Positions 24,336 to 63,797 of a stretch of DNA of 64,000 bases are shown one piece after another. This DNA is from Escherichia coli. Lineage in GTDB: Bacteria; Pseudomonadota; Gammaproteobacteria; Enterobacterales; Enterobacteriaceae. The notes beneath the pieces are model-generated. The model made no database searches. It was not told the origin of the DNA and saw only the letters and a program-made list of their open reading frames with translations. Position numbers and translations under genes: made by a program. Location of the stretch: assembly GCF_048403405.1 (NCBI RefSeq), contig NZ_CP183129.1; one strand, 5' to 3'. Position 1 is the first letter of the stretch; each line of letters begins with the position of its first letter.

Positions 24336-25913
24336 ATGACGGAAAACATTCATAAGCATCGCATCCTCATTCTGGACTTCGGTTCTCAGTACACTCAACT
24401 GGTTGCGCGCCGCGTGCGTGAACTGGGTGTTTACTGCGTACTGTGGGCGTGGGATGTGACAGAAGCACAAATTCGTGACTTCAACCCAAGCGGCATTATT
24501 CTTTCCGGCGGCCCGGAAAGCACCACCGAAGAAAACAGCCCGCGTGCGCCGCAGTATGTCTTTGAAGCAGGCGTACCGGTATTCGGCGTTTGCTATGGCA
24601 TGCAGACCATGGCAATGCAGTTGGGCGGTCACGTTGAAGCCTCTAACGAACGTGAATTTGGCTACGCGCAGGTTGAAGTCGTAAACGACAGCGCACTGGT
24701 TCGCGGTATCGAAGATGCGCTGACTGCAGACGGTAAACCGCTGCTCGATGTCTGGATGAGCCACGGCGATAAAGTTACCGCTATCCCGTCCGACTTCGTC
24801 ACCGTAGCCAGCACCGAAAGCTGCCCGTTTGCCATTATGGCCAACGAAGAAAAACGCTTCTACGGCGTACAGTTCCACCCGGAAGTGACTCACACCCGCC
24901 AGGGTATGCGCATGCTGGAGCGCTTTGTGCGTGATATCTGCCAGTGTGAAGCCCTGTGGACGCCGGCGAAAATTATCGACGACGCTGTAGCTCGCATCCG
25001 CGAGCAGGTGGGCGACGATAAAGTCATCCTCGGCCTTTCTGGTGGCGTGGATTCCTCCGTAACCGCAATGCTGCTGCACCGCGCTATCGGTAAAAACCTG
25101 ACTTGCGTATTCGTCGACAACGGCCTGCTGCGTCTCAACGAAGCAGAGCAGGTTCTGGATATGTTTGGCGATCACTTTGGTCTCAATATTGTTCACGTTC
25201 CGGCAGAAGATCGCTTCCTGTCAGCGCTGGCTGGCGAAAACGATCCGGAAGCAAAACGTAAAATCATCGGGCGCGTTTTCGTTGAAGTATTCGATGAAGA
25301 AGCGCTGAAACTGGAAGACGTGAAGTGGCTGGCGCAGGGTACTATCTACCCTGACGTTATCGAATCTGCGGCGTCTGCAACCGGTAAAGCACACGTCATC
25401 AAATCTCACCACAACGTGGGCGGCCTGCCGAAAGAGATGAAGATGGGCCTGGTTGAACCGCTGAAAGAGCTGTTCAAAGACGAAGTGCGTAAGATTGGTC
25501 TGGAGCTGGGCCTGCCGTACGACATGCTGTACCGTCATCCGTTCCCGGGACCAGGCCTTGGCGTTCGTGTTCTGGGTGAAGTGAAGAAAGAGTACTGTGA
25601 CCTGCTGCGCCGCGCTGACGCCATCTTCATTGAAGAACTGCGTAAAGCGGGCCTGTACGACAAAGTCAGCCAGGCGTTCACCGTCTTCCTGCCAGTACGT
25701 TCCGTTGGCGTAATGGGCGATGGTCGTAAGTATGACTGGGTTGTCTCTCTGCGTGCTGTCGAAACCATCGACTTTATGACCGCACACTGGGCGCATCTGC
25801 CGTACGATTTCCTCGGTCGCGTTTCCAACCGCATTATCAATGAAGTGAACGGTATTTCCCGCGTGGTGTATGACATCAGCGGCAAGCCGCCAGCTACCAT
25901 TGAGTGGGAATGA
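24336..25913 (+). CDS. guaA: GMP synthase (glutamine-hydrolysing)
   Basis: 525-aa ORF; N-terminal glutamine amidotransferase (GVCYGMQ), ATP-PPase SGGVDSSV motif. Confidence 0.95.
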
Positions 25914-26105: not shown

Positions 26106-27356
26106 GTGCTTACCGATACAAAATTAAAAAACCTCAAGCCGCAGGACAAACTGTACAAGGTCTCCGATCGTGACGGGCTGTATGTAGCTGTGCTTACGTC
26201 AGGCACGGTCTCGTTTCGCTATGACTACCGTATCAACGGTCGCCGCGAAACACTGGTAATCGGGCAGTATGGGCGTGACGGTATCAGCCTGGCAGAAGCG
26301 CGAGAAGAACTGATTGCTGCAAAGAAGCTGCTTAAAGCAGGCCAGTCACCGGCTGCGGCTAAACGTGACGGTATCAAAAAGATTCGTGGTGCCGAGACGT
26401 TTGCGGTACATACCGACAGTTATATGAAACATGTCATCCTGGCTGACAGTACCCGCGCAATGAAGCAGGCGGTGATCGACCGTGACATACTTCCGGTTCT
26501 TGGCAACAAAATGATGACTGAAATTACCACATCGATGGTTCGTGATTTGTGTGACCGGATTGTCGAACGCGGTGGTCGGGCAACAGCAGTGCAGGCCAGG
26601 GAGATCATCAGCAGCGTATACCGTCACGCCAATGACCGTGGTCATGGTTTGTTTAATCCTGCGGCTGACATTAAACCTTCGTCTATCGCCATATTTAAAC
26701 CACGAGAGCGAACACTGACGCCAGAAGAAATTGGCCTGTTCTTCCGCACGCTGGATGCCATTGGTGCTATGGGCACTATGAAAATGGCTTTAAAGCTGGT
26801 GCTTATCACTATGGTTCGTAAAGGCGAATTCACCAATGCAACGTGGGACGAAATAGATTTTAAAAAATGGACATGGACAATTCCTTCAGACCGCATGAAG
26901 GGAAGCCGGGCGCATGTTATTTACCTGCCTAAACAGGCACAGGATATATTGGTCGGGTTGCAGATGTGCGCTGGTGGAAGTGAATATCTGGTTCCTGGTC
27001 GTTACAACTTCCGGAAGCCATTATCTAATGCCGCGCTGAACTCTCTGATCGACAGAACGGTGAAAATAATAAATGAAGATGGTGAGCATATTCAGGACTT
27101 CACCGTACATGATATGCGCCGTACAGCCAGTACGTTGTTGCATGAGGCTGGTTATCCTTCAGACTGGATTGAAAAGGCTCTGGCACATGAGCAGAAAGGT
27201 GTGCGCGCCGTATATAACAAAGCGGAATACGCCAGACAGCGCGCCTACATGTTGCAGCAGTGGGCCGATATGATTGATTCCTGGATTGACGGGGAGCATA
27301 CGGATCTGATTCCGTTCTCCCCGTCGAAGTTTGAGAAGTGGATGGCGGGAGAATAA
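26106..27356 (+). CDS. int: tyrosine integrase (P4-like family), prophage left end
   Basis: 416-aa ORF, GTG start; N-terminus MLTDTKLKNLKPQDKLYKVSDRDGLY typical of P4-type integrases; C-terminal catalytic region (HDMRRTASTLL...Y). Confidence 0.9.
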   Translation: MLTDTKLKNLKPQDKLYKVSDRDGLYVAVLTSGTVSFRYDYRINGRRETLVIGQYGRDGISLAEAREELIAAKKLLKAGQSPAAAKRDGIKKIRGAETFAVHTDSYMKHVILADSTRAMKQAVIDRDILPVLGNKMMTEITTSMVRDLCDRIVERGGRATAVQAREIISSVYRHANDRGHGLFNPAADIKPSSIAIFKPRERTLTPEEIGLFFRTLDAIGAMGTMKMALKLVLITMVRKGEFTNATWDEIDFKKWTWTIPSDRMKGSRAHVIYLPKQAQDILVGLQMCAGGSEYLVPGRYNFRKPLSNAALNSLIDRTVKIINEDGEHIQDFTVHDMRRTASTLLHEAGYPSDWIEKALAHEQKGVRAVYNKAEYARQRAYMLQQWADMIDSWIDGEHTDLIPFSPSKFEKWMAGE

Positions 27357-37988: not shown

Positions 37989-38585
37989 ATGATGCCTGCT
38001 GAACCTAAAACCTATAAACGCAAATCAACGCAATTTAAGCCGCTCACAGCAATGCAGGAGGCTTATTGCCAGTCATACATCAAAACGCCTGAAAACCAGA
38101 CTCAGGCAGCGATTAACGCAGGATTCTCCCCAAATACAGCGGCAGTTAAAGCCAGTGTCATGATGCGCGATGAACGCATTCAAAAACGGATTGCCGAGTT
38201 GATGGAGGAGCGCAACAAACGAATGCGCGTCAGTGCTGATTACGTTCTCATGCGCCTGGTGGAGATCGACCAGATGGACGTGATCGATATCCTCAACGAC
38301 GATGGGAGCCTTAAACCAATCCGCGAGTGGCCGAAAATCTGGCGCACTACGCTTAGTGGCTTTGATCTGTCATCGACCATCATGAACATGAACGAGGATT
38401 CGATAGAGACAATCCTCAAAAAAATTAAATGGCCTGACAAGGTGAAGAACCTCGAACTGATTGGTAAGCACGTCGACGTCAACGCATTCAAAGAACGCCT
38501 GGATGTTAATGTGAATGTGACAATTGCTGATCGCATAGCGGCAGCCAGGAAGCGACTCAAAGAACGTCAGGATGGTAATCAGTGA
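37989..38585 (+). CDS. terminase small subunit
   Basis: About 198 aa immediately upstream of and overlapping terminase large subunit; basic N-terminus, HTH-like segment. Confidence 0.7.
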   Translation: MMPAEPKTYKRKSTQFKPLTAMQEAYCQSYIKTPENQTQAAINAGFSPNTAAVKASVMMRDERIQKRIAELMEERNKRMRVSADYVLMRLVEIDQMDVIDILNDDGSLKPIREWPKIWRTTLSGFDLSSTIMNMNEDSIETILKKIKWPDKVKNLELIGKHVDVNAFKERLDVNVNVTIADRIAAARKRLKERQDGNQ

Positions 38586-40057
38586 CAGATACAGCGTTAT
38601 CTCCTGAAGAGCAGTTGATCGAGGATATTGCAGGGTTTACTCACGATCCGCTTGGTTATGCCCTCTATGCGTTCCCGTGGGGGGAAGAGGGTACTGAACT
38701 GGCACATGCTACCGGCCCACGTCAGTGGCAGGCTGATGCGTTCCGAGAGATACGTGATCACCTGCAGAATCCAGAGACGCGCTATCAGCCGCTTATGCTG
38801 GCACGCGCTTCTGGTCACGGTATTGGTAAATCCGCATTCATCTCAATGCTGATCAACTGGGGCATGTCCACTTGCGAGGATTGTAAGGTCGTGGTGACCG
38901 CCAACACCGACAACCAGCTACGAACGAAGACCTGGCCGGAAATTATCAAGTGGTCAAACCTTGCTATCACGAAAGACTGGTTTACCTGTACCGCTACCGC
39001 GATGTACAGCAATGACCCTGGGCACGACAAGCGGTGGCGCGCTGACGCAATCCCCTGGTCTGAGCACAACACTGAGGCGTTCGCGGGACTACACAACGAG
39101 CGCAAACGCATCATCGTGGTGTTTGATGAAGCGTCGAACATTGCGGATCTGGTGTGGGAAGTTGCCGAGGGTGCGCTTACGGACGAAGACACCGAAATCA
39201 TCTGGGTGGCGTTCGGGAACCCGACGCGTAACACCGGGCGTTTCCGTGAGTGTTTCCGCAAGTACAAACACCGCTGGAAGTGTGCGCAGATTGACAGCCG
39301 GACGGTGGAAGGCACCAACAAACAGCAGTTGCAGAAATGGGTTGATGACTACGGGGAAGACAGCGACTTCGTTAAAATCCGTGTGCGCGGCATATTCCCT
39401 GATGCATCTGAATTGCAGTTTATTCCTACCGGTCTTACTGACGAGGCAATGAAACGGGTGGTAACTGCTGCGCAGGTGGCACATGCTCCGGTGATAATCG
39501 GCGTTGACCCTGCATACTCCGGTGTTGATGACGCGGTGATATACCTGCGGCAGGGGCTGCACAGTAAGGTGCTGTGGACCGGCAACAAGACCATTGACGA
39601 TCTGATTATGGCAAAGCGTATCGCTGACTTTGAAGACCAGTATCAGGCTGACGCGGTGTTCATCGACTTCGGTTACGGAACCGGTTTGAAGTCAATCGGT
39701 GACGGCTGGGGTCGTACATGGCAACTTGTTCCGTTCGGCGGTGCGTCCACTGACCCGCAGATGCTTAACAAGCGTGGGGAGATGTTCAACTCATGTAAGA
39801 CATGGCTGAGGCTGGGCGGCATGCTGGATGACCAGGAAACAGCAGACGACCTGTCGGCGGCAGAGTACAAAGTTCGTGTGGACGGTAAAATCGTTATCGA
39901 ACCGAAGGAAGATATCAAAGAGCGTCTTGGGCGTTCGCCGGGTAAAGGCGATGCGCTACTGCTGACGTTTGCTTTCCCTGTGTCGAAGCGTCTGCGAATT
40001 CCTGGGCAGCAGAACCAGCAAGGCAAGGCCATCACAGATTATGACCCGTATGCTTAA
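38582..40057 (+). CDS. terminase large subunit
   Basis: 491-aa ORF with Walker A-like GHGIGKS and ATPase/nuclease two-domain size. Confidence 0.85.
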   Translation: MTDTALSPEEQLIEDIAGFTHDPLGYALYAFPWGEEGTELAHATGPRQWQADAFREIRDHLQNPETRYQPLMLARASGHGIGKSAFISMLINWGMSTCEDCKVVVTANTDNQLRTKTWPEIIKWSNLAITKDWFTCTATAMYSNDPGHDKRWRADAIPWSEHNTEAFAGLHNERKRIIVVFDEASNIADLVWEVAEGALTDEDTEIIWVAFGNPTRNTGRFRECFRKYKHRWKCAQIDSRTVEGTNKQQLQKWVDDYGEDSDFVKIRVRGIFPDASELQFIPTGLTDEAMKRVVTAAQVAHAPVIIGVDPAYSGVDDAVIYLRQGLHSKVLWTGNKTIDDLIMAKRIADFEDQYQADAVFIDFGYGTGLKSIGDGWGRTWQLVPFGGASTDPQMLNKRGEMFNSCKTWLRLGGMLDDQETADDLSAAEYKVRVDGKIVIEPKEDIKERLGRSPGKGDALLLTFAFPVSKRLRIPGQQNQQGKAITDYDPYA

Positions 40058-40108
40058 TCCGCTGGTGGGGATAATGTCGTTGATATCCTCTGATGAGGAT
40101 AAAACAAA

Positions 40109-40133
40109 GCCAGCTCATCGGCTGGCTGTTTGT
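40109..40133. terminator. bidirectional terminator between terL (+) and gp49-like gene (-)
   Basis: agccagc-tcatc-ggctggct hairpin with T-rich flanks on both strands. Confidence 0.5.
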
Positions 40134-40147
40134 GACATGTCACGGTG

Positions 40148-40504
40148 TTATTGCTCGCTTAGCTTCTGCTTCAGCAAGTAACCTTCGAGCATCCAGATTT
40201 TGTTTACAGCATTCTGCCGGGCAATCTTCCGACCAATTTCTGCATCAAAGTTTTCCGGGCTTGCACAGGCGCTCTCTCCGGTGACGGTGAAGCCATTCTT
40301 CAGCACCAGTACGCAGAAAGTAAGGAGGTCTGTAGATTTATGCGCTGTCCACGCATCGCCAATGCCCATATTGGCGGCACGAATACCGTCATAAGCAGTA
40401 AAGAAATGCTCTTCAAGAATGATGCTTTCGATATATTGGGGCGTAACTCGCGGTGCCGTTTTGCCTTTCTCAACGATTTCTTTTTCGATTTGCTGGTCGT
40501 TCAT
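40148..40504 (-). CDS. Gp49-like phage protein
   Basis: 118-aa ORF; resembles the N15 gp49-like family as recalled. Confidence 0.5.
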   Translation of the reverse strand: MNDQQIEKEIVEKGKTAPRVTPQYIESIILEEHFFTAYDGIRAANMGIGDAWTAHKSTDLLTFCVLVLKNGFTVTGESACASPENFDAEIGRKIARQNAVNKIWMLEGYLLKQKLSEQ

Positions 40505-40702
40505 AATCTCACCTTAAAAAAATGCCCGGCGAACCGGGAGAACTGGAAGCAATGAGTTATGCCTTCCGTGGCTGTACGGGTTTACAGCATGAAGTCATCG
40601 CAATGGCGTCCTGCTGTAAAAAGGGCGGTGATAGTCCTTCAAGGGAAACCATCACCGCCAAGCCCCTGGAACTTCTGGCATCACGGTCCTTAGGCGTGAT
40701 TC

Positions 40703-40779
40703 TGGCGTGGCATGCAGGATTCGAACCTGCGACCAACCGCTTAGAAGGCGGTTGCTCTGTCCAACTGAGCTAATGCCAC
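40703..40779 (-). tRNA. tRNA-Arg (anticodon UCU), phage-encoded, CCA end encoded
   Basis: Reverse complement GTGGCATTAGCTCAGTTGGACAGAGCAACCGCCTTCTAAGCGGTTGGTCGCAGGTTCGAATCCTGCATGCCACGCCA folds as cloverleaf; anticodon loop CTTCTAA; T-arm GGTTCGAATCC; close to E. coli argU. Confidence 0.85.
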
Positions 40780-41101
40780 AACGCTGAGAGCACTTAGCCT
40801 GTTAAGGCGCCACACTTTGTCGCGGCTCCATAAATGCTCTCATCGTTGCACCCTCGTCTCTTCCGAGGCGTCACACCGAATCGCCGGGATGGTGAATCCC
40901 CGTGCGCGGAATAAAACCGCTCGACTTGCACATTCCGGCTACCTGGTTCGTTTGCCCGAGCAAGTGAGGGTGCCCCTTAAACGTATCCAGACCGCTATCG
41001 ACGCATGTGCCATACACCGTACTGCTCAAAATAAAAGCTCACCCCACCTGTTCAATTTAACGACAAGCCAGTCAGGTTAATAACCGGAATGAACTCTTTA
41101 C

Positions 41102-41116
41102 TTACCTGAAGGGTAA
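41102..41116. promoter_or_regulatory. perfect TTACC-N5-GGTAA palindrome upstream of head gene cluster
   Basis: TTACCTGAAGGGTAA; ATGTGGTT motif at 41160-41167. Confidence 0.5.
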
Positions 41117-41205
41117 TAATTGTGCGTTAAATGTCAACCACCTACGATAAATAAATCATATGTGGTTAAATTGGTAATAATTTAATTGCGTACGGAGTCA
41201 TTGAT

Positions 41206-41412
41206 ATGTGCATGGGTAGCTCACCATCAGTGCCTGCAACACCAGAAGTTCAGGCAGCACCACAGGAGCAGGATGCCGCCGTTGTTGATGCCCGCGACGA
41301 AGAAACACGTCGCCGTCGCGCTGCTGCTGGTCGTAGTTCTACGCTGCTTACCGGTTCTCAGGGCGACACATCAACCGCTAATACCAGCGGTAAAACGCTG
41401 CTTGGTCAGTAA
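41206..41412 (+). CDS. small virion-associated protein candidate (T7 gp6.7-like size and composition)
   Basis: 68-aa ORF beginning MC, Ala/Thr/Ser-rich, directly upstream of portal; analogy only. Confidence 0.35.
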   Translation: MCMGSSPSVPATPEVQAAPQEQDAAVVDARDEETRRRRAAAGRSSTLLTGSQGDTSTANTSGKTLLGQ

Positions 41413-41426
41413 CCGGAGTCATTGAA

Positions 41427-43106
41427 ATGGCGGAAACAACTAAAGAGCGATTGAACAAACAGTTCGCACAACTTGAAAGCGAGCGTCAGTCGTTCGAGCC
41501 GCACTGGCGCGAGTTGAGTGATTACATCAACCCGCGTGGTTCCCGCTTTCTGACTTCTGAGGTCAACCGTAACGATCGACGCAATACACGCATTATTGAT
41601 TCGACCGGGACTATGGCGGCGCGCACTCTCGCCAGCGGCATGATGTCAGGCATCACAAGCCCCGCGCGTCCGTGGTTTCGCCTGGCTACGCCTGATCCTG
41701 AAATGATGGATTATGGCCCTGTTAAGTTGTGGCTTGAGGCGGTGCAGAACCGCATGAACGATATGTTCAATAAGTCGAATCTCTATCAGTCGCTGCCGCA
41801 GTTATACGGAAGCCTCGGCACATACAGCACTGGTGCAATGGCAGTGCTGGAGGATGACGAGGACATTATTCGCACAATGCCATTCCCGATAGGCAGTTAC
41901 TACCTAGCTAACTCACCTCGTGGCAGTGTGGACACCTGTTTTCGCAAGTTCTCTATGACTGTTCGTCAGCTTGTTCAGGAGTTCGGGCTAAATAACGTCA
42001 GCGAATCCGTAAAAAGCATGTGGGAAAGCGGAACCTACGAGAAGTGGATTGAAGTGATGCATTCGGTTTACCCGAACATTGACCGCGATACATCGAAGCT
42101 GGATAGCAAGAACAAGCCATTCAAATCGGTTTATTACGAGGTTGGTGGCGATAACGACAAGTTGTTGCGTGAGTCCGGATTCGATGAGTTTCCAATTATG
42201 GCTCCGCGCTGGGAAGTTAACGGCGAAGATGTTTATGGATCATCATGCCCGGGTATGCTGGCGCTTGGACCTGTTAAGGCATTGCAGCTTCTCCAGAAGC
42301 GCAAGTCGCAGATCATCGACAAAGTGACAAACCCTCCGATGGTTGCCCCTACCACTCTCAGAACACAGAGTGTTTCGTTACTTCCTGGTGGCGTCACATA
42401 CGTAGATCAACTGACTGGACAGGAAGGATTAAGGCCTGTTTATCAGGTTAACCCTAACACTGCGGATTTAATCAGCGACATCCAAGATACGCGGCAGACC
42501 ATCAACAGCGCCTACTTTGTCGATCTGTTCATGATGTTGCAGAACATCAATACCCGCTCGATGCCTGTTGAAGCGGTGATCGAAATGAAAGAAGAAAAAC
42601 TTCTGATGTTGGGGCCGGTTCTGGAGCGTCTGAACGACGAATGTCTTAATCCTCTCATTGACCGCGCTTTCTCGATGATGGTGCGTAAAAACATGCTGCC
42701 GCCACCGCCTGACGCGATGGAAGGCATGCCCCTGAAGGTCGAATACATTTCCGTCATGGCTCAGGCGCAGAAGTCTATCGGCCTGTCCAGTCTGGCGTCC
42801 ACGGTTAACTTCATTGGTCAACTTGCGCAAGCGAAACCAGAAGCTCTCGACAAACTCAATGTTGATCAGGCGATCGATGCATTCGCTGATATGTCCGGAG
42901 TGTCTCCAACCGTCATTGTTCCGCAGGAACAGGTTGAGCAGGCTCGCCAGCAACGGGCACAGCAGCAACAGCAGCAACAAATGATGGCGATGGGAATGGA
43001 GGCGGCACAGGGCGCCAAGACGCTAAGCGAAGCTAAAACTTCGGATCCGAGTGTTTTGTCAGCTATGGCGAATGCAGTTAGTGGTCAGGGTGGGCAATCA
43101 CAATGA
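41427..43106 (+). CDS. portal (head-to-tail connector) protein, podovirus type
   Basis: 559-aa ORF; Gln-rich C-terminal tail (QQRAQQQQQQQMMAMGMEAAQG) as in T7-type portal proteins; position after terminase. Confidence 0.8.
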   Translation: MAETTKERLNKQFAQLESERQSFEPHWRELSDYINPRGSRFLTSEVNRNDRRNTRIIDSTGTMAARTLASGMMSGITSPARPWFRLATPDPEMMDYGPVKLWLEAVQNRMNDMFNKSNLYQSLPQLYGSLGTYSTGAMAVLEDDEDIIRTMPFPIGSYYLANSPRGSVDTCFRKFSMTVRQLVQEFGLNNVSESVKSMWESGTYEKWIEVMHSVYPNIDRDTSKLDSKNKPFKSVYYEVGGDNDKLLRESGFDEFPIMAPRWEVNGEDVYGSSCPGMLALGPVKALQLLQKRKSQIIDKVTNPPMVAPTTLRTQSVSLLPGGVTYVDQLTGQEGLRPVYQVNPNTADLISDIQDTRQTINSAYFVDLFMMLQNINTRSMPVEAVIEMKEEKLLMLGPVLERLNDECLNPLIDRAFSMMVRKNMLPPPPDAMEGMPLKVEYISVMAQAQKSIGLSSLASTVNFIGQLAQAKPEALDKLNVDQAIDAFADMSGVSPTVIVPQEQVEQARQQRAQQQQQQQMMAMGMEAAQGAKTLSEAKTSDPSVLSAMANAVSGQGGQSQ

Positions 43107-49847: not shown

Positions 49848-50422
49848 TGTGCGATCCGGTTATTGCTGGTGGCGCAATGCTCGCCATGAGTGGCATTCAG
49901 GCATACACCCAGTACCAACAGGGAAAGTATGCCTCGAAGGTTGCAGAAGCGAACGCAGATATAGCCACAGCTCAGGCAAATGATGCAATAAACAGAGGTA
50001 ACGCTGAAGCTGAGCAACGACGCAGAGAGACCCGACAGCGGCTTGGTACACAGGCGGCGACAATGGGGGCTACCGGCGCTGATTTATCTACAGGTAACGC
50101 GCTGGATATATTTGGCGACACTGCCCAGTTTGGCGCTCTTGATTCGCTGACGACGGTGAATAACGCGCAACGCGAGGCTTACGGTTATCAGGTTCAGGCT
50201 GCCAACTATAAAGCAGAAGCCAGTTCAGCCCGTAAACAGGGGAATGTAGGAGCAGCAACAACATTGCTCACTGCGCCTCTGAAGGCATACGGTGCGTACC
50301 AGATGTTTGGTGGGACGTGGAGTCCGTTCTCTAAAGGAAGTACATCTAGTGGTGGGACGCCAATGTTATCTAACTCAGGTTTTATGAATTCTGACTCCCG
50401 ATTCAAAATAGGAGGTTACTGA
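49847..50422 (+). CDS. internal virion protein (gp14-like)
   Basis: 191-aa ORF starting MC, Ala/Gln-rich, size and composition like T7 gp14. Confidence 0.5.
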   Translation: MCDPVIAGGAMLAMSGIQAYTQYQQGKYASKVAEANADIATAQANDAINRGNAEAEQRRRETRQRLGTQAATMGATGADLSTGNALDIFGDTAQFGALDSLTTVNNAQREAYGYQVQAANYKAEASSARKQGNVGAATTLLTAPLKAYGAYQMFGGTWSPFSKGSTSSGGTPMLSNSGFMNSDSRFKIGGY

Positions 50423-53169
50423 TGCCTGTTGTTCCTACTACATCCGGACGTCAGGTGCAAAGTCGTGGTGTGCAAACCGGTGGTTTTCAGATCTTCGATG
50501 TTCCTCAAGCAGATCAGGTGCTGGCGAATGTCGCAGATCAGTATGCGGTGGCATATGGTGAAGCCAGGCAGAAAGCGAATGTTGCTATGGCCCAGGAGGC
50601 GTTACTGCAATTTAACCAATTTGCAGATGACCAGATTAACAACCCTGAAAGTGGGCTGATTTCTAAACAGGGTAAAAACGCTCTTGGTCAGAGTGACGCT
50701 GTTATGAAAAATATGCAGGAAAGGGCTCAGGCATTATTAGGCTCAATTCCTGAAAGTGAGGAAAGGAATAAATTATCCTTTCAACTCCAGCAGTCTATGC
50801 AGTCTTATTACAATCAGGCACGTCGATATGAAGTTGGGCAGTTTCAGCAATTCCAAGATCAAACGTATTTGTCAGGAAATGCATTGGCTGTCACTCAGTC
50901 TGCGGGGCTATATAGCGATAACCAAGCATTTGTCGATTTAGCCAAGCAGCGATTTGAATCTATTGATCAATACGCTGATGCGCATGGGCTTCCTGATGAG
51001 TGGCGTGTTCAGCAGAAAACTCAGCTCAAGGAACAAATGGGGCAGCAAGCATGGATAGGAAATATCGCTCAAAAATACAACGAGTTTCTTCAGGTTAATG
51101 GAGAGCCAGGGGATCTTGATGGTGTGAGTCGTGCAATATCACATGGTAATTCATTGGATGCTCGTGGTTTACGTAATAATAACCCTGGTAATATTGAAGC
51201 GAGCAAATCTAACCCGTGGGAAGGTCAGATCGGTAGCGATGGACGTTTTGCAACGTTTGCTACCCCTGAGCATGGAATCCGCGCGTTGGGTAAAAATATG
51301 TTGTCTTACCAGCGTCAAGGCTATGACACCGTTAGCGAGATTGTTAATCGCTATGCTCCGGCTAGTGATGGTAATAATACTGATGCTTATATTAGGGCAT
51401 TGTGTGGTGAGCTTGGTGTTGGGGAGAATGATCAGCTTGATATCTCTAACCCAAAGACACTAGCTGCTTTATGTGCTGGGATTATTAAACACGAAAATGG
51501 CAGTATGCCTTATAGCACCGAACAGCTTGAAACTGGTATCTCGGCAGCCCTTGGTCTAACTAACCTTGATTCACCTAAGCGTTATACAGGCAATGCGGCA
51601 TTTGATGCTATGAGCCCTCAAATGCAAATACAGGCATTGAGGCAGGCTAATGAGCTGAGAAATCAGTACCGCCAGCAGTATGCGGACCAGCTTAGCACCG
51701 TAGTTAAAGATGCATATTCAGCCCTTGATGAAGGATTGAAACCTGAGAAGTTACCTTCTGAGGACGATTTTATCCGGGCCAATGGTCCGCGCATTGGCGC
51801 TATGAAGTGGAAGGATATGCAGGCGCAGATACAATATGGAGGTGTCATTGGTGCCGCTAAAGACCTCACTCCAGAAGGACGACAAGACATTCTTGAACGT
51901 TTACGTCCACAGGATCCAAACGCTCCTGGATTTGCAGCTAACCAGCAACGCTGGGAGAAAATGCAGGCCAAATTTAAAGAGATGGATAGGGAGTGGGAGA
52001 TTCAGCAGGGAAGAAACAGGTTCGTGTCTTCAATGCAAAATAACTTCCCGCTGGACCCGAACGACAAAAACAATCAGGCAGCGGTAGACCGTTATTTCGC
52101 GCAGGATATCGCGCCTTCGTTTTCCATATCTGATCCGCAGAGCATCAATACACTGGTCACCGTCACAACTAAAAGCGGCATGATACCAACTCAGGTTAAA
52201 ACAATGCTTAACAGTGGAGCAACATCAAGAGATCCTGCGCTGGTTGTCCCGATGGCAAAATTCTACGGTCAGTTATTCGATAATAATCCGGCGGCAGCGG
52301 CAACACTTGATAAAAGTACGATGGCATTTTACGGCAAGGTTTACGATTATTCCCGCGCTGGCGTGCCGGAGGATAAGGCTGTTGATATGGCTTACAGCCA
52401 GGTGTTCCAACAGGATGACCGAATGAAACAGATGCTTTCCACTGCCATGCGAGACAAAAAATATGTCGCGGCGAGGGCAACTGCTGCACAAAATAACGCC
52501 AGCAGTCTGACTTCCTTTGGTTCGTGGTCTCCGGATATTACCGATCCAGGAAAATCAAATGCGGCCTATCAGCGAGATTACCAGACAATTTACGATGCTA
52601 ACTTTGTACAGACAGGTGGCGATGCAGAACAGGCTGAGAAAATGACCAATGCCATGATCAGAACCACCTGGGGAGTTTCTACGGTTAATGGCAAAGCAGA
52701 GGTTATGAAGTATGCACCTGAGGCATTGTACGGAGTAAATAATGGTGCTGGTAACTGGATACAGGGGCAGTGGGAGCAGGAAAAACGCGAGCTTAAATCA
52801 AAATCCTTTGGCGGTCCTCGCAGTGATACGGACTTAATACTTGTTTCTGATGGCCTTACGGCAAGGGATAGGAGTTATGCTGTTATGGTTTTACAGCCTG
52901 ACGCAAACGGAGCGATAGAACCGAGAAATTATATTGGAGAAAATGGTCTCCCTGTTCGTTTCAAGCCGGATCAGCTGACATCTCCAATGTACAGGCAAAC
53001 CATTAAGTTCCAGCAACAGCGTGTTGATGAGGCTAGAGTGCGGAGAGAAGGCAATCCGCTGCCGCAGTTCAGCAATAAAGATGGATATACTCCTCCAGAT
53101 CTGACCAAACCATTCGGTTATGGTTCAGCCAATTACCTTCCGAGCAATATATACGCAGGGGGCAAATAA
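50422..53169 (+). CDS. internal virion/ejection protein (gp15-like)
   Basis: 915-aa ORF in the core-protein position; contains a conserved-looking segment GLRNNNPGNIEASKSNPWEGQ...GIRALGKNM. Confidence 0.5.
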   Translation: MPVVPTTSGRQVQSRGVQTGGFQIFDVPQADQVLANVADQYAVAYGEARQKANVAMAQEALLQFNQFADDQINNPESGLISKQGKNALGQSDAVMKNMQERAQALLGSIPESEERNKLSFQLQQSMQSYYNQARRYEVGQFQQFQDQTYLSGNALAVTQSAGLYSDNQAFVDLAKQRFESIDQYADAHGLPDEWRVQQKTQLKEQMGQQAWIGNIAQKYNEFLQVNGEPGDLDGVSRAISHGNSLDARGLRNNNPGNIEASKSNPWEGQIGSDGRFATFATPEHGIRALGKNMLSYQRQGYDTVSEIVNRYAPASDGNNTDAYIRALCGELGVGENDQLDISNPKTLAALCAGIIKHENGSMPYSTEQLETGISAALGLTNLDSPKRYTGNAAFDAMSPQMQIQALRQANELRNQYRQQYADQLSTVVKDAYSALDEGLKPEKLPSEDDFIRANGPRIGAMKWKDMQAQIQYGGVIGAAKDLTPEGRQDILERLRPQDPNAPGFAANQQRWEKMQAKFKEMDREWEIQQGRNRFVSSMQNNFPLDPNDKNNQAAVDRYFAQDIAPSFSISDPQSINTLVTVTTKSGMIPTQVKTMLNSGATSRDPALVVPMAKFYGQLFDNNPAAAATLDKSTMAFYGKVYDYSRAGVPEDKAVDMAYSQVFQQDDRMKQMLSTAMRDKKYVAARATAAQNNASSLTSFGSWSPDITDPGKSNAAYQRDYQTIYDANFVQTGGDAEQAEKMTNAMIRTTWGVSTVNGKAEVMKYAPEALYGVNNGAGNWIQGQWEQEKRELKSKSFGGPRSDTDLILVSDGLTARDRSYAVMVLQPDANGAIEPRNYIGENGLPVRFKPDQLTSPMYRQTIKFQQQRVDEARVRREGNPLPQFSNKDGYTPPDLTKPFGYGSANYLPSNIYAGGK

Positions 53170-56100
53170 TGCCGATATATGAACAGGATCCTAAAGAGTT
53201 GCTTGGCGAGGATATTCAGCAAATAGCAGCACCTGATGACAGTAATTTCTATATGGAAACACCTTCTTTGCTTTCTGCTGTGAACCCATTTACCAGTGAT
53301 CAACGCGTTCAAAGGTCTAGACAAGCAGCATTTCGTATAGATAACACGCTGGGTAGCTTTATTGCCAGTGCTCCTTTCAGTCAGTTTGACAGGGTTGAAG
53401 GATATAACCCATTTGATAACGATGCAGCAGATATTAAAGGCTATGAAGATTTTGCAGATTCGTTTATCAACTCCGGTTCGCATGAAGAAACAATGGCAAT
53501 TAAACATCGAATCGATCAGCAGAGAGCTGACATGGAATACAATTCAGGCTTGGGATTTGCTGGTACAGTCTCTTCTGTAGCAATGAGATTAGCAGATCCA
53601 TTCAATGCGATTTCTATGTTTATTCCGTTCGGCGCTGTCGTTCGTGGCGGTCGTATTGCAGAAACAGCCGGACGTTTTGCTTTAGCCAATGCTGCTGGCA
53701 GTGTTGCTTCAGAGGCCGCATTGCAGGCCACTCAGGAAGCTCGCTCACCGATGGAGAGCGTATCGAACGTTGTTGTTGATGCTCTCGTTGGTGGGATCCT
53801 TGGTGCTGGTGCACAGCTACTTGCTGGACCTAGCGCGCGCGAGGCAGTGGTTAACTCAGTAGGTAATCATTTGCGAGGTATGGATTCTCCTCAAAGCATT
53901 GGTGCAGCTCAGGTTTTCAATACCACACTCGATCAGGAACAGCTTGCTGGACTTGGACTTGCTAACAAAACGTTGAGTGTCACTCCTGCTGGCCGCTTGG
54001 CGCAATCACCATCTCTTGTTTCCCGTCAGATTAACCAGCAGCTTGCCGAAAATAACTATTTCTTCGCCAAAAATGATGAGGGGTTGGCTACGTTTACGGC
54101 AGTCGAGACTAAGATTAAGCAATACGACGCCATGCTTTATAAGCAGATGGAAGCTACTCGTGATGCTTACCAGCAGTACAGCAAATCTGTCAGCGCCCGC
54201 GGCGTGAAGAGGATGAACTTTATTGATTTCAATGAAGCTGTTGGCATGGCTATGCGCCGTGGTGATCAGAGTGATATTCCTGAGGTTTCACAAGCAGCCG
54301 CCAGAATCCGCCCCATTTTTGAGACCACAAAAGCCCGTATGCAGGAATTGGGGATCCTTCCTGAGGATATCGATGTCGTGACGACGAAGAGTTATCTTCC
54401 CCGCATTTATAAGTTCGATAAGATACTTTCCGACCGCACTGAATTCAGAGGGCGAATTGCCAACTGGATACAAGGGATTAGTGCCAAAGGTGCTGACAAA
54501 GCAGGTCAGCGAATTGAAAAGATAAATTCATTGCTAAAAACTGCAGAGGAATCAGCACCGCGCGCTGATGCTCTCGCTAGTGAAATCGCTGAAGCGGAGA
54601 AATGGTCTGGTAAAAAAATTCTACTCATGGAAGAACTGGATAAACGAAATAAGCTTATATCTCAGGAGACTGACACACAGGCGCGTCTTACAAGAATAGA
54701 AAAAGAGTTGGCCGAGACTTCATCAGAAAAACTTCAGGCAAGAATGATGAAAGAAAGCTCTGACCTTAAAACACGCCTTGATGATATAGCGCAGGCAAAG
54801 AGTGAGCTTCCTGTCTATCAGCGCCATATGGAGTTGCTGGATAATCCACGGAAATATCGTTCTGAGCTTCGCCGACTGCAAAAACGGGCAAATTCAACCA
54901 CAAGGCTGAATGCAAGCCGCGAGCGAGCACTGAAGCAGATGGAGCCTCTATCCCGAGAGGAAGCAGAGGACGCTGCTGACGAGATCGTGAATAAAATAAT
55001 AGGCGCACCTTCCGGGCTTGTACCAGCCGATATTATCCCAGAGAGACTCGTTGGTCGGGCTGGTTTCACTAAAAGCCGAACGCTGCTTATTCCTGATGAG
55101 CGTATAGAAGATTTTCTTGAATCAGATGTTAACTACATCATGGAAAGTTATCTCCGGCAGGTGGCACCAGAAATTGAGCTGACTGCGCAGTTTGGCCGTA
55201 AAGATATGGGGGAGCAAATCCGTCAGGTTAGTGAGGAATATACCCGGCTAATAAAAGAGGCTAAAACACCTAAACGACGTGCAGCTCTTGAGAAGCAACG
55301 GGAGGCTGATATTAGGGATATTACGGCTATGCGTGACCGACTGCTTGGTACTTACGGCGCACCTCAAGATCCACGCAGTTTCTTTGTTCGTGCCGGGCGA
55401 GTTGCTAGGAATATTAACTTCCTCCGTTTGCTTGGTGGAATGACCGTCTCCGCTGCAACTGATCTGATGCGACCGATGATGCAGCATGGCCTGAGAAAAT
55501 CTCTCGGACCAATGGTAAGCATGCTTAAAAATATGGACTCAGTGAAAATTGCAACCAGGGATTTGCGAGAAATGGCAGTTGGGCTTGATTATGTCCTGTC
55601 TACGCGCACAAAGGCTATAGCGGATCTTACTGACCCCTATAGCCGGAGAAGCGCCGCTGAGCGAGGTCTGAACTGGATGACGCAGAAATTCGGTAACTGG
55701 ACGCTGATGAATCAGTGGAACAGCGCACTTAAATCATGGTCTGGGATGATAGTGCAGTCGAGGATACTTGACGCGGCTCGCCAAGTTTCTGCTGGTGGCA
55801 CGCTCTCCAAAAGTGAAATGCGGAAGATGGCACAGGTCGGCATCAATGAAGATGTTCTGCGCCGAATCGGGGAGCAATTCGGGAAGCACGGAGAGGATAT
55901 GGACGGGCTGTTAACCGGGCATAGTCATCTGTGGGATGACCGTTTCGCTAGAGAGATTTTCCAGTCTGCAGTGCTGAAAGATGTAGACTCAGTGATTGTA
56001 ACGCCTGGCGTAGGTGATACACCGCTGTTTTTTAGTAAAGAAGGCTGGAAGATGATCACGCAGTTCAAAACGTTTATCTTCGCACAGCATAACAGGGTGC

Positions 56101-56558
56101 TAGTATCTGGTATCCAGCAGGGCGATGCTGCATTCTATCTTGGTGCGCTTGGCACGATTGCGCTTGGCTCAATGGTCTATATGATGAAACAGAAGTTAAG
56201 CGGTCGCGATATCGACTACAGCTGGAATAACCTTGTGAAAGAGGGGATCGACCGGGGCGGAATGCTTGGCTGGCTCTCTGAGCCGCTGAATACCGTTGAG
56301 AACATAAGCGGCGGTAGGTTTGGTCTTGGCGCGATGTTTGGTGCGCCTCCGGTATCAAGGTTTCAGAGTCGTAATGCTATTGGTGCTTTACTTGGTCCTA
56401 CCTTTGATCTTGGCGGTGATGCCGCGACGGTTGCAAATGGTGTACTTAACGGAGAATTTGACAGCCAGCAAACCCACGCTGTCCGTAAAATGCTACCTTT
56501 TCAGAATCTGTGGGCGATATCACCATTACTAAATAAAGTTGAAGAGCAGATGAAATAG
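53169..56558 (+). CDS. internal virion/ejection protein (gp16-like)
   Basis: 1129-aa ORF, largest core protein, precedes tailspike region. Confidence 0.5.
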   Translation: MPIYEQDPKELLGEDIQQIAAPDDSNFYMETPSLLSAVNPFTSDQRVQRSRQAAFRIDNTLGSFIASAPFSQFDRVEGYNPFDNDAADIKGYEDFADSFINSGSHEETMAIKHRIDQQRADMEYNSGLGFAGTVSSVAMRLADPFNAISMFIPFGAVVRGGRIAETAGRFALANAAGSVASEAALQATQEARSPMESVSNVVVDALVGGILGAGAQLLAGPSAREAVVNSVGNHLRGMDSPQSIGAAQVFNTTLDQEQLAGLGLANKTLSVTPAGRLAQSPSLVSRQINQQLAENNYFFAKNDEGLATFTAVETKIKQYDAMLYKQMEATRDAYQQYSKSVSARGVKRMNFIDFNEAVGMAMRRGDQSDIPEVSQAAARIRPIFETTKARMQELGILPEDIDVVTTKSYLPRIYKFDKILSDRTEFRGRIANWIQGISAKGADKAGQRIEKINSLLKTAEESAPRADALASEIAEAEKWSGKKILLMEELDKRNKLISQETDTQARLTRIEKELAETSSEKLQARMMKESSDLKTRLDDIAQAKSELPVYQRHMELLDNPRKYRSELRRLQKRANSTTRLNASRERALKQMEPLSREEAEDAADEIVNKIIGAPSGLVPADIIPERLVGRAGFTKSRTLLIPDERIEDFLESDVNYIMESYLRQVAPEIELTAQFGRKDMGEQIRQVSEEYTRLIKEAKTPKRRAALEKQREADIRDITAMRDRLLGTYGAPQDPRSFFVRAGRVARNINFLRLLGGMTVSAATDLMRPMMQHGLRKSLGPMVSMLKNMDSVKIATRDLREMAVGLDYVLSTRTKAIADLTDPYSRRSAAERGLNWMTQKFGNWTLMNQWNSALKSWSGMIVQSRILDAARQVSAGGTLSKSEMRKMAQVGINEDVLRRIGEQFGKHGEDMDGLLTGHSHLWDDRFAREIFQSAVLKDVDSVIVTPGVGDTPLFFSKEGWKMITQFKTFIFAQHNRVLVSGIQQGDAAFYLGALGTIALGSMVYMMKQKLSGRDIDYSWNNLVKEGIDRGGMLGWLSEPLNTVENISGGRFGLGAMFGAPPVSRFQSRNAIGALLGPTFDLGGDAATVANGVLNGEFDSQQTHAVRKMLPFQNLWAISPLLNKVEEQMK

Positions 56559-61145: not shown

Positions 61146-63797
61146 ATGACGGTCTCAACCGAAGTTGACCACAACGAATACACTGGTAACGGAGCTACGA
61201 CATCATTTCCGTATACCTTCCGTATTTTCAAAAAATCCGACCTGGTTGTTCAGGTGTCTGACCTGAACGGGAACGTAACAGAATTGGTTCTGGATACTGA
61301 CTACACAGTAACCAATGCTGGAGGATATAATGGCGGTAATGTAATTCTGTCGAAGGCGTTGGCTAACGGTTATCATATTTCTATATCACGAGAGCTCCCG
61401 GTTACGCAGGATACTGATTTGCGTAATCAGGGTAAGTTCTTCGCTGAGGTACATGAAGACGCGTTCGATAAACTGACAATGCTTATTCAAAAGTGTTTTT
61501 CATGGATGAGGTTAGCACTTATAAAACCAAGCATTCTGGCTAACTATTATGATGCAAAAAATAATAAGATATCAAATCTAGCAAATGCCACTGACAGAAA
61601 CGATGCTGTCAATAAAGGTTATGTTGATGATCTTTTTACTGGAGGTGTAACGCCTACACCTAACAGCGTTAAAAACGATATTTTTACAAATCACCAAAGA
61701 AAGATTGTAGCTACGATGCCGCTTCTTTTTCCTGAATATGATGCGATTATGGCTGCTAACCCGTCAGCAACTTATATGTATCCTCAAGGATTCTGCGTTA
61801 GCGAAGATTTGATATACATCACTTATCCATTTGAGCCTAAACAGACGAATAATGTCGTCGCAGTATTTAACATATCTGGTATTTATCAAGGTTATTTCTA
61901 TGTTCAGGCTGGCGGCCCAGGCTTCGCTGCTGAAGGAATCGTGGTTACGTCAGACTATGGCCCCAAAAAAATGTTTGTTGGTCACACAAACGGAATACTG
62001 CGTGAATTTAATATGGAGGGGGCATTATACGGAAGCAATCTGCCTCTTGTACAAAACCATGATGTTGGATTATTCAACCAGTTCAGCTACAGAAGAGGTA
62101 TATGGCTCGTTGAGCAGAATGCGCCAGAAGTAGGACAGAAAATCACAAGAACTGTACTTGCAGTGTTCGACAGTGGTTTCAATCGCCTGTCAACTATAAC
62201 GCTGCCGTTACATGATGTTGGGTATGTAACTAAAAGCACCTCACCTTATGCGCCTTATTTCAACAAGCGTCAGGGTATTGCGGTAGGTGATAACTACTTT
62301 GTCTGCGGCTATGGCGGCTTCATAGCTGATGGGGCAGGAAGCGCAGGATATAACGAATATCAGGGCAGCAAAGTTTTTAACCCTGACGGTACAAAGCGAA
62401 CTGAATCAATGCTTCATCCTCAGGCCATGATGGATTTAATGAAAGCCGCAGGATTGAACGTCACTCGCATAGAAAATGAAGGCGTTTGTGTTTCTCAGGA
62501 TGGAAAATCCATTTATTCACTTTACATTCATCAGGAAAGAACTGGCTCTGAACCTTACAATTCAGGTTTGGTTATTTTCGAAGATTTCTCCACTGATAAA
62601 GATGCTATCGATTTTACACCTGCATCCAGGCTTTACCGCGGATTTGATATCGATCACGCGAGCATTGGGGTATATCCCCGTAGTGCGAAGGGGATTGTTA
62701 ACCCTGTAGATGGTACGTTGTTCACTAACATGACTGAAATTCTTCGCTATATGCAGGAGATGAGTCAGAAGGCATTTAATTTTTACACAGGGACTGTCAG
62801 CATTGCTGATATATCTGGCGTGGCAATCCCTTCCAGCACATATGTTGAAATACTGAATGCGAATAATCAGACTTTTATAGTCAACTATTATTCATCTGAT
62901 AGTGGTATTAGTTATTTGGTTGCAACTAATCCTTCTGGTGACTTTGTATTTGTGCGCCAGCGACCGGCACAGTGGGCATCTAACTTAACCATTCAGCAAA
63001 ACGCAGATCCTGATACAAACCAATTAAACCGCATCACTGCATCATCATATGCCGGTGCAACTACAAACTCTCAGAAAATATTGGTCCTTGACCAGCAGGC
63101 TACAGCTAGCGCAAATAGCTTGGTATTGGGCGGTAGTTCTTCTGTGTTTAGGTCTGCCACCACGGTGGATATTGCATGCAACAGCGACCCGACAGCATTG
63201 GGAGGAACCATACGCTGGCGGTTTTATGATACAGGTCTTCGCCCGTTTGCTGACAATACCTATAATTTTGGTCAGGCATCGTTTCGTATTAAAGACGCCT
63301 ACTTTGCAAATGCCCCAACCGTTTCATCAGATGCCACGCTGAAAACCAATCCCGAGGCAATATCAGATTTAAGTGAAATGCTTTCTTCTGATAGAGACAG
63401 CATTCTTGATGCCTGGGGCGATATTTCTGTTGTGGCGTATCGATGGCTCGACGCTATATCCATGAAGGGCGATGGTGCCAGATGGCATTTTGGCGTCATG
63501 GCTCAGCAGGTAAGGGATGTATTCTTGGCGCACGGAATTGATGGAACCAGATTTGGCCTTCTTTGCTATGACGAGTGGGATGATATTTTTGAGCCGGTAA
63601 TCGCGACTAAAGAGATTACCGATACGTCTGGTGAGTTGGTCACCGTCGAATATGACACCGGAGAACAGAGGCTGGTTAAAAAAGCGGGTAGTTCATGGGG
63701 TATACGGCCTGACCAGTGCGCTTGGCTTGAGGCTGCATATCAGCGCCGTCGATGCGATCGTATTGAAGAGCGACTCGAACTATTGGAATCAAAATAA
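61146..63797 (+). CDS. tailspike/tail fiber with N-terminal podovirus adaptor domain and C-terminal intramolecular chaperone (peptidase S74-like) domain
   Basis: 883-aa ORF; N-terminus resembles T7 gp17 N-terminal domain pattern; C-terminal ~130 aa resemble self-cleaving chaperone domains of endosialidase-type tailspikes. Confidence 0.8.
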   Translation: MTVSTEVDHNEYTGNGATTSFPYTFRIFKKSDLVVQVSDLNGNVTELVLDTDYTVTNAGGYNGGNVILSKALANGYHISISRELPVTQDTDLRNQGKFFAEVHEDAFDKLTMLIQKCFSWMRLALIKPSILANYYDAKNNKISNLANATDRNDAVNKGYVDDLFTGGVTPTPNSVKNDIFTNHQRKIVATMPLLFPEYDAIMAANPSATYMYPQGFCVSEDLIYITYPFEPKQTNNVVAVFNISGIYQGYFYVQAGGPGFAAEGIVVTSDYGPKKMFVGHTNGILREFNMEGALYGSNLPLVQNHDVGLFNQFSYRRGIWLVEQNAPEVGQKITRTVLAVFDSGFNRLSTITLPLHDVGYVTKSTSPYAPYFNKRQGIAVGDNYFVCGYGGFIADGAGSAGYNEYQGSKVFNPDGTKRTESMLHPQAMMDLMKAAGLNVTRIENEGVCVSQDGKSIYSLYIHQERTGSEPYNSGLVIFEDFSTDKDAIDFTPASRLYRGFDIDHASIGVYPRSAKGIVNPVDGTLFTNMTEILRYMQEMSQKAFNFYTGTVSIADISGVAIPSSTYVEILNANNQTFIVNYYSSDSGISYLVATNPSGDFVFVRQRPAQWASNLTIQQNADPDTNQLNRITASSYAGATTNSQKILVLDQQATASANSLVLGGSSSVFRSATTVDIACNSDPTALGGTIRWRFYDTGLRPFADNTYNFGQASFRIKDAYFANAPTVSSDATLKTNPEAISDLSEMLSSDRDSILDAWGDISVVAYRWLDAISMKGDGARWHFGVMAQQVRDVFLAHGIDGTRFGLLCYDEWDDIFEPVIATKEITDTSGELVTVEYDTGEQRLVKKAGSSWGIRPDQCAWLEAAYQRRRCDRIEERLELLESK

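Follow-up and report, generated by a model that had tools for sequence, protein, structure and literature searches.

Organization of the locus

The window analysed in this study is a stretch of 64,000 nucleotides (nt) of Escherichia coli DNA (contig NZ_CP183129.1). It consists of host chromosome up to guaA (24336-25913), followed to the window end by an integrated phiV10/epsilon15-like podovirus of the genus Uetakevirus. Between the large terminase gene and the gp3-like gene of this prophage all features are organised on the minus strand, in the order RNA core, long hairpin (P6), tRNA-Arg, two terminator-like hairpins (T1 and T2), cargo gene and end terminator (Table 1). A first-pass annotation of the sequence had placed the tRNA between the terminase and head modules, which agrees with the positions of the large terminase and portal genes, but it had overlooked the main content of the adjoining gap. 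This is a conserved, pseudoknotted RNA belonging to a family common to phage P1, lambdoid phages and Jedunaviruses, and we regard this structured RNA family as almost certainly real.

Table 1. Coordinates of the minus-strand unit and of the prophage genes named in the text.
Feature	Position	Strand	Details
RNA core	41021-40846	-	About 165 nt; four helices (P1, P2, P4, P5) and a pseudoknot; covariance model and covariation
P1 hairpin	41019-41012 with 41006-40999	-	Loop GGCAC
P2	40991-40987 with 40946-40942	-	Encloses a variable arm
Joiner GGUAGCCGGAAUGUGCAAG	40943-40925	-	Near-invariant
P3	After joiner GGUAGCCGGAAUGUGCAAG, before P4	-	Variable arm
P4 hairpin	40900-40896 with 40890-40886	-	
Pseudoknot	40894-40891 (P4 loop CACC) with 40877-40874 (GGUG)	-	Covaries to AACC/GGUU and GGUC/GACC
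P5 hairpin	40868-40864 with 40856-40852	-	Loop GAAGAGA; missing or substituted in some lineages
P6 long hairpin	40848-40779	-	Closing helix CAACGAUGAGAGC with GCUCUCAGCGUUG (CAAC...GUUG); tip hypervariable
tRNA-Arg	40703-40779	-	Anticodon UCU; 77 nt; CCA encoded; ARAGORN and Rfam RF00005
Candidate promoter of the RNA/tRNA unit	41055-41028	-	Tentative, weak; TTGAAC, 16 nt, TATTTT; start near 41021; read from the sequence
T1 terminator-like hairpin	40659-40624	-	14 pairs; GGCGGTGAT...ATCACCGCC, then CUUUUUAC (CTTTTTAC); pattern scan
T2 strong terminator-like hairpin	40539-40524	-	GCCCGG-UUCG-CCGGGC (CCCGGTTCGCCGGG), then AUUUUUUU (CATTTTTTT); pattern scan (40538-40525)
Cargo gene	40504-40148	-	118 amino acids; N4 gp49 / Sf6 gp66 family; PF13876, E = 1.7e-34; PHROG 322
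Terminator-like hairpin ending the unit	40127-40108	-	Pattern scan; same site is a plus-strand terminator in the phiV10 record
Prophage integrase gene	26106-27356		
Large terminase gene	38582-40057	+	
gp3-like gene	41206-41412	+	68 amino acids; precedes the portal gene
Portal gene	41427-43106	+	

Fold and strand of the RNA core

To count covariation, 43 diverse homologues were aligned with MAFFT without regard to structure, and five helices were named by eye; the labels P1-P6 and P7 were coined in this analysis. Standard pairs occupied 90.4% of the cells, compared to 31-51% when the 3' partners were slid by 1-3 columns. Changes on both sides were found in 15 of the 28 pairs (108 cells), and none of 500 shuffles attained the observed values. 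Two positions are U-G in 41-43 of the 43 sequences. These pairs would read A-C on the plus strand, and the fold therefore belongs to the minus-strand transcript. When folding was compared with shuffled sequences, the minus strand gave z = -4.1 and the plus strand z = -2.5.

AGCGGUC, GGUAGCCGGAAUGUGCAAG and GGCGAU are joiners that hardly vary among the aligned copies. Approximately 45 nucleotides, many of them in unpaired joiners, are invariant across Uetakevirus, lambdoid phages, phage P1 and Jedunavirus, groups that otherwise share little. A covariance model built from the 43-copy alignment (R1) has a single match in the window, at 40846-41021 on the minus strand (143.3 bits, E = 4e-42), and finds one copy in each of 66 loci; it has no match in HK022 or in the K-12 prophage CPS-53. 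The loop of the P1 hairpin (GGCAC) could pair with GUGC in a joiner, although both sides are invariant and covariation is thus uninformative for this pairing. A further helix, in which GUUGUA would pair with UGCAAC so as to close the whole core, was dropped because it suits the cdtI type but neither phage P1 nor the window.

The core is non-coding and matches no Rfam family

The length of the element ranges from 150 to 182 nt across the homologues and takes all three residues modulo 3, no consistent signal of three-base periodicity was detected across them, and the "hypothetical protein" annotations that overlie the RNA in different records fall on either strand. Taken together, this indicates that the element is not coding. 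Two such annotations over the RNA are mEp460 gp37 and mEp390_036. The gap had been described as free of open reading frames (ORFs), and 40780-41205 indeed holds only ORFs of 45-87 amino acids with unusual start codons. A 52-residue minus-strand ORF (40871-41029) was considered because its LGQTNQVAGMCKS stretch recurs in cdtI, yet this stretch is the translation of an invariant RNA joiner. PHROG searches with the neighbouring small ORFs gave no match.

The first-pass annotation had offered two proposals for the gap, a degenerate second tRNA or a small RNA. The former found no support, since neither a tRNA nor a transfer-messenger RNA was detected in the gap by ARAGORN or Rfam (RF00005 included) at E <= 10; the latter was borne out by the covariation-supported RNA. 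A search of 39800-41700 with Rfam 15 (4227 models, E <= 10) matched the tRNA, left the gap without a family match and gave only chance-level matches elsewhere. The elements of five relatives likewise matched no Rfam family at gathering thresholds. An RNA annotation of the element was absent from all records inspected, and none of 40 sampled records had a feature annotated under it. No published description of this RNA was found in the open-access literature searched (put/HK639, P1 ban, phage structured RNAs, anti-small RNAs, ROOL/GOLLD).

Fusion of the P6 hairpin to tRNAs

The core is followed by the P6 hairpin, the last G of which (40779) is position +1 of the tRNA. Sixty distinct P6 sequences fold with the closing helix (median 17 bp), and compensatory variants of this hairpin include GAUGAGAGC/GCUCUCAGC, AGGUAAGAGC/GCUCUUUCC, AUGAAAGCGC/GCGCUUCCAG and GAUGAUGAC/GUCAUCAGC. 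The junction, GUUG followed directly by UGGCAUUAGCUCAG, is identical in lineages that have the tRNA-Arg at a distance from the core of 165, 170, 224 or 374 nt; distances of 312 and 461 nt are found in two others, which makes six spacings in all. In a Jedunavirus-like contig a tRNA-Met/Ile(CAT) directly follows P6. In phage P1 the tRNA is located upstream instead, in the order trnI, 14 nt, core, ban. Co-oriented tRNAs adjoin 33 of the 133 distinct copies, and every adjacent tRNA is co-oriented with the RNA. Units lacking a tRNA have another domain in its slot, and the helix that closes this domain is acceptor-like (GUUGUGGUGA with UCACCACAAC).

The 3' strands of P6 read GCTCTTTCCGT (GCTCTCAGCGT in the window) and are base-paired. 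The gamma-proteobacterial boxA consensus is GYTCTTTAANA (PMC5725501). A boxA/Nus site in P6 was rejected, as at most 7 of the 10 specified consensus positions match and the strand is paired.

P6-type modules also occur apart from the tRNA junction. The module CAAC-RUGARAGCRC...GYGCUCYY-GUUGUG is a repeated unit, with as many as three copies in pL leaders that span ~850 nt and contain no ORF (L028 at 8006-8107, 8484-8552 and 8638-8716; also L020 and L079). In Uetakeviruses it is located just upstream of the core, as in Tyrion (L002) and epsilon15 (L004), and the upstream copy in the window (~41040-41095) is degenerate. The foot of the module, CACAAC/GUUGUG, resembles the target and seed motifs of GcvB; the 3' strand of the module starts like boxA (GCTCTTT) but does not satisfy the boxA consensus.

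The tRNA-Arg(UCU) and codon supply

The annotated tRNA was recovered with its anticodon and its encoded CCA. ARAGORN called it as the sole tRNA of the 64-kb window, with anticodon TCT at position 35, and RF00005 scored it at 73.3 bits (gathering score 29, E = 1.2e-15). Its minus-strand sequence ends in ...ATGCCACGCCA, and the 3' end ...GCCACGCCA shows that CCA is encoded and the acceptor end complete. The same gene is annotated in the records of relatives KP869107, KP869108 and MN187550. Phage tRNA-Arg(UCU) genes are found, for instance, in Shiga toxin (Stx) phages and O157 typing phages, and the tRNA of the window is a plain member of this group. It is thus ordinary and already known; what is new is that it is joined, as a fixed arrangement, to P6 of the RNA upstream.

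In phiV10 (NC_007804, 2672-2923) and TL-2011b (NC_019445, 14239-14490) an 83-residue (252-bp) "hypothetical protein" runs antisense across the tRNA-Arg, which is itself unannotated; the corresponding ORF of the window is 40522-40773 on the plus strand. This protein is very likely a mis-annotation.

The tRNA had been proposed to compensate for rare codons in late genes. Codon counts, which rest on crude ORF calls in the prophage part and the host flank, make a role in codon supply plausible. In the prophage, AGA accounts for 77 of 614 arginine codons (12.5%) and AGG for 56 (9.1%), compared to 20 AGA codons among 406 (4.9%) in the host flank, or 6 among 314 (1.9%) when two atypical ORFs are left out. 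The large ORFs of 50422-56558 and the tail-spike ORF (61146-63797) are unusually rich in AGA/AGG (18, 22 and 14 codons), which the portal and capsid genes almost lack. The supply would therefore serve particular genes, and "late genes" was too broad a description.

Promoter, terminators and cargo gene

A promoter scan of 40000-41500 found none. The candidate promoter listed in Table 1 agrees with the consensus at 8 of 12 positions and lies under the scan threshold. Transcription may begin further upstream, for example from TTGACA at 41137-41132, as the degenerate P6-type module at ~41040-41095 suggests. In relatives, consensus promoters with palindromic operators are found from a few to ~45 nt upstream of the P1 hairpin, e.g. 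TTGACACTCACGTCAA...TAATTA in IME346 and TTGACA-16-CATAAT in L012. The window also contains a 32-bp imperfect palindrome, AACCACATATGA ... TCGTAGGTGGTT (41136-41167), which overlaps this TTGACA and lies between the RNA unit and the gp3-like and portal genes. The epsilon15 record annotates integration host factor (IHF) and repressor sites in the corresponding gap. The palindrome may mark a divergent, repressor-controlled promoter region.

Terminators were identified as consensus matches only, that is, a G+C-rich hairpin followed by a U run. Five terminator-like sites were found in 40000-41500, compared to 1.4 expected from shuffles. The hairpins reported earlier on the flanks of the tRNA are real, but they are predicted transcription terminators of the minus-strand unit rather than accessory tRNA structures. 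T1 lies 44 nt after the tRNA and is kept in phiV10-type relatives. T2 directly abuts the ribosome-binding site of the next gene. The same hairpin, slightly varied, is seen again at 400-750 nt past the core in ~25 distinct Uetakevirus-type contexts.

No promoter of its own was recognised for the cargo gene (40504-40148). The slot that follows the conserved terminator varies in content among relatives (L092, L035, L095, L003, L140, L018). In the close relative L092 it holds a Tad2-like anti-Thoeris domain (PF11195, E = 3.2e-24). The slots of other relatives hold assorted unknown proteins, two of which resemble, on visual inspection, an SPFH-type protein and a membrane protein.

Distribution and genomic contexts

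In BLAST searches, 40780-41205 showed ~97% identity to phiV10-type phages, 40780-41020 showed ~83% identity to the lambdoid phages cdtI, mEp460, 2H10 and Stx2c-converting phages, and 40858-41020 showed ~79% identity to P1, P7, D6, SJ46 and RCS47. Weaker matches were obtained in Klebsiella and other phages, and a query of another subtype added mEp390, the SPN1S group and ~15 Jedunavirus genomes. The element is present in 1839 of 5426 complete E. coli genomes, at 2472 matching places, 554 of them on plasmids. A pattern scan of IMG/VR yielded at least 115 distinct copies, which fall into at least 54 clusters at 93% identity. In the species representatives of GTDB, an exact 19-mer was found in Enterobacterales only, save for two short contigs of metagenome-assembled genomes. 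These carry the RNA and are labelled "Bacillota/Lachnospiraceae" (L138 and L151; the L151 copy is of the E. coli lambdoid type), and they are probably mis-binned. An enterobacterial-type copy was also found in the "Stenotrophomonas" phages BUCT708 and BUCT709 (OM816834 and OM816835, both 43,947 bp); the Klebsiella prophage match ST101-KPC2phi6.3 (43,942 bp) is nearly equal to them in length. The host or bin assignments of BUCT708/709 and of L138/L151 look doubtful.

In lambdoid phages the early-left operon opens with the RNA, which lies directly downstream of the gene for a cI-type repressor and of a promoter bearing operators. Examples that follow operator-bearing pL-type promoters are L012, L010 and mEp390, whereas in the window the promoter is uncertain. 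L028 and L034 share the oL/pL sequence of HK022, which is followed by the RNA in the slot that putL occupies in HK022. The lambdoid leaders are 350-900 nt long and ORF-free, with up to three copies of the P6-type module, and no gene for an N-like arginine-rich protein was seen downstream. In the BUCT708 type a promoter precedes the RNA and a strong terminator follows it; the early genes come after a further 360 nt that contain no promoter. In the BUCT708 early-left leader (L010, 1560-1810 and 2170-2230, minus strand), P5-type hairpins with a GC-rich stem and the loop GAAAGA or GAAGAG, e.g. GCCGG-GAAAGA-CCGGC, recur at least six times as a "GGAAAGACC" repeat, on both sides of the terminator. 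They look like lambda boxB hairpins; no N-like protein was found.

In P1-like phages the RNA is placed within the C1-controlled ban operon, between trnI and ban. Uetakeviruses show the order RNA, tRNA (in some lineages, including the window), conserved strong terminator, variable accessory gene and terminator, all antisense to the structural operon. In epsilon15 (L004, 1933-2036) only about the first third of the core is present (43.7 bits), with no tRNA, and the record annotates an "RNaseIII" site adjoining this remnant (L004 2033-2132, plus strand). The Jedunavirus unit comprises its own consensus promoter, the RNA, a tRNA-Met or a non-tRNA domain, and a terminator. In IME346 and the related contig L026 the terminator is strong, and this unit is antisense to the baseplate genes and is followed by no co-oriented protein gene, so that its only products are RNAs. 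The order in the Lastavirus SopranoGao is terminator, promoter, RNA.

Overall, downstream terminators numbered 62 in sense and 67 in antisense, and in cdtI-type leaders none was found within 1 kb. A second, putR-like copy per phage was sought and found in none of the 66 loci; the motifs on the opposite strand are the 5' strands of P6-type hairpins. One IMG/VR contig has two copies (L012 and L013), but these are of the lambdoid and the Uetakevirus type and do not form a left/right pair. The K-12 prophage CPS-53 carries homologues (yfdP-yfdR) of the genes located downstream in cdtI and mEp460 but lacks the RNA, and K-12 data therefore cannot help.

Comparison with known systems and possible function

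ROOL and GOLLD are phage RNAs located near tRNAs or containing them, and their function is unknown (bioRxiv 10.1101/2024.12.08.627333). Like them, the RNA described here is encoded by phages and prophages, contains a pseudoknot with covariation support and is found close to tRNAs, which in their case form islands and sometimes lie inside GOLLD. However, their Rfam models do not match it, the core is ~165 nt and whole units ~400-570 nt, its hosts are Enterobacterales, and it also occurs as the leader of early operons. Another group of prophage RNAs of pathogenic E. coli, AgvB and AsxR, comprises Hfq-binding small RNAs of 51-60 nt encoded at a moron site downstream of PR' (PMC4104026). The AgvB motif CACAACA is also present at the foot of some P6 hairpins; identity with these anti-small RNAs was rejected, as location, size and structure all differ.

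We tentatively favour, as a possible reading modelled on ROOL and GOLLD, an RNA product that is self-contained, expressed early and linked to a tRNA. The gap would then be the 5' part of a minus-strand non-coding unit composed of the core, P6, tRNA-Arg(UCU) and two terminators, followed by a variable accessory gene. The RNA would be made early in infection or induction, would either stay attached to the tRNA or be released from it through RNase P cleavage at the P6/tRNA junction, and would act by binding a conserved host component, as might the tRNA-linked ROOL and GOLLD. Its purpose would most likely be host takeover or counter-defence tied to tRNA or translation; it is the genomic neighbours, including the Tad2-like domain of the cargo slot, that point to such action on the host. 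The Jedunavirus units, with no co-oriented gene after the RNA, argue that the RNA acts independently of downstream content, and the pL-type operator promoters of lambdoid phages together with the C1-controlled ban operon of phage P1 argue for early expression. A self-contained RNA accounts for every context, Jedunavirus included, and is in keeping with the linkage to tRNAs, the invariance of unpaired bases and the resemblance to ROOL and GOLLD. Several points weigh on the other side. The window's own promoter is weak or uncertain, the core is much smaller than ROOL or GOLLD, and the binding of a host factor is something we infer from conservation alone. P6, which pairs up to tRNA position -1, could hinder RNase P rather than help it. 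Moreover, in the window and in the BUCT708 type strong terminators stand between the RNA and downstream genes that have no recognisable promoter, an arrangement that a cis-acting read-through element fits better, and in phages with the oL/pL operators of HK022 the RNA sits exactly in the putL slot.

These last points lead to the main competitor, a processive antiterminator leader acting in cis in the manner of HK022 put or Bacillus EAR, in which the nascent core would bind its own RNA polymerase and make it resistant to the terminators, and to Rho, on the way to the tRNA, cargo gene or early-left operon downstream. The put RNA suppresses termination in cis by way of the zinc-binding domain of the RNA polymerase beta-prime subunit. 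The put RNA is ~70 nt long, consists of two stem-loops and is present in two copies, L and R (PMC9378689). In L028 and L034, with the same operators as HK022, the RNA takes the place of putL directly after pL; in cdtI, mEp460, mEp390 and Stx2c phages it comes first after the cI-type repressor gene and no N-like gene follows. Terminators follow the RNA in several contexts: the promoter-less early genes of BUCT708 lie behind one, T1 and T2 precede the promoter-less cargo gene of the window, and in phage P1 the RNA is inside the long ban operon, directly before ban. A recent survey recorded no N homologue in the related phage LLS and suggested put-like RNA antitermination for it (PMC12315714). 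The RNA differs from put, however, in its size of ~165 nt, its four helices and pseudoknot, its single copy per locus without a putR-like partner, and its occurrence in stand-alone units. It has no sequence or structural similarity to put, and homology to HK022 putL/putR was rejected by both blastn-short and the R1 model. A 14-mer, ACGGTGTGACACCT, which comprises the 3' strand of the pseudoknot and the start of P5, occurs exactly in the coding sequence of HK022 nun (L159 3415-3428) and was treated as chance. The EAR RNA, which Irnov and Winkler reportedly described in 2010 as a structured, pseudoknot-containing antiterminator of Bacillales eps operons, is said to be able to sit mid-operon, and in this it is like the RNA in the ban operon of phage P1; its Rfam model is nevertheless unmatched at E <= 10, and it belongs to another phylum and to bacterial operons, not phages. 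Beyond the terminator at the end of the Jedunavirus units there is only a convergent gene, which leaves nothing to antiterminate. In addition, cdtI-type leaders have no terminator within 1 kb, and the balance of 62 sense and 67 antisense terminators downstream shows no excess in sense. On this evidence an antiterminator is a serious candidate, although we consider it rather unlikely.

The invariant joiners, covarying stems and pseudoknot are also typical of riboswitches and self-cleaving or processing ribozymes, and the position of the RNA, in a 5' leader or at a tRNA-mRNA junction, would suit a ligand-sensing or catalytic core that forms a binding pocket or a catalytic centre and controls or processes the transcript, separating for example tRNA, RNA and mRNA. 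Such a role appears improbable: no known model in Rfam matches, stand-alone units exist with no gene to regulate, and there is no consistent expression platform, the core being followed variously by the ribosome-binding site of ban, by P6, by tRNAs, or by terminators at 220-750 nt. An element that acts as DNA (a single-strand initiation or primosome site, a recombination site or an operator) is very improbable. It could account for the location directly upstream of the helicase gene ban in phage P1, and folded signals in single-stranded DNA also show compensatory changes, but the numerous G-U pairs that are invariant or frequent speak for RNA and for one strand, while the promoter before, the terminator after and the strict co-orientation of tRNAs fit a transcript. 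Finally, the tRNA might be all that matters, the gap being a spacer without function or the remains of a second tRNA. Pseudo-tRNAs are common in phage tRNA clusters, and the tips of P6 in some relatives hold T-arm-like strings such as GGTTCAATTCC. However, ARAGORN and RF00005 find no tRNA in the gap, the core has a different, covariation-supported fold, and this core is kept in phages without an adjacent tRNA. We therefore give this explanation next to no weight and consider it refuted in practice.

Implications

The RNA is present in well-studied phages, namely P1, P7 and D6, lambdoid and Stx2c phages, and relatives of phiV10 and epsilon15. Existing annotations are corrected accordingly, both where "hypothetical proteins" have been placed over the RNA (several records) and where they cover the tRNA (phiV10 and TL-2011b). 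We think it somewhat probable that the core represents a new functional class, being either a third, structurally unrelated type of antiterminator RNA or a trans-acting RNA that captures a conserved host machine early. If it is an antiterminator, it would fill a gap noted long ago, namely what lambdoid phages lacking both N and put rely on for their early-left operon; if it captures a host machine, this would be a component of RNA processing, translation or immunity. Either would be a new RNA-based mechanism, so far overlooked although a third of complete E. coli genomes, phage P1 and Shiga-toxin phages carry the RNA. Alternatively, the RNA may give enteric bacteria the first tractable counterpart of ROOL and GOLLD. 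As its hosts are genetically tractable E. coli phages, the function of this RNA is directly testable.

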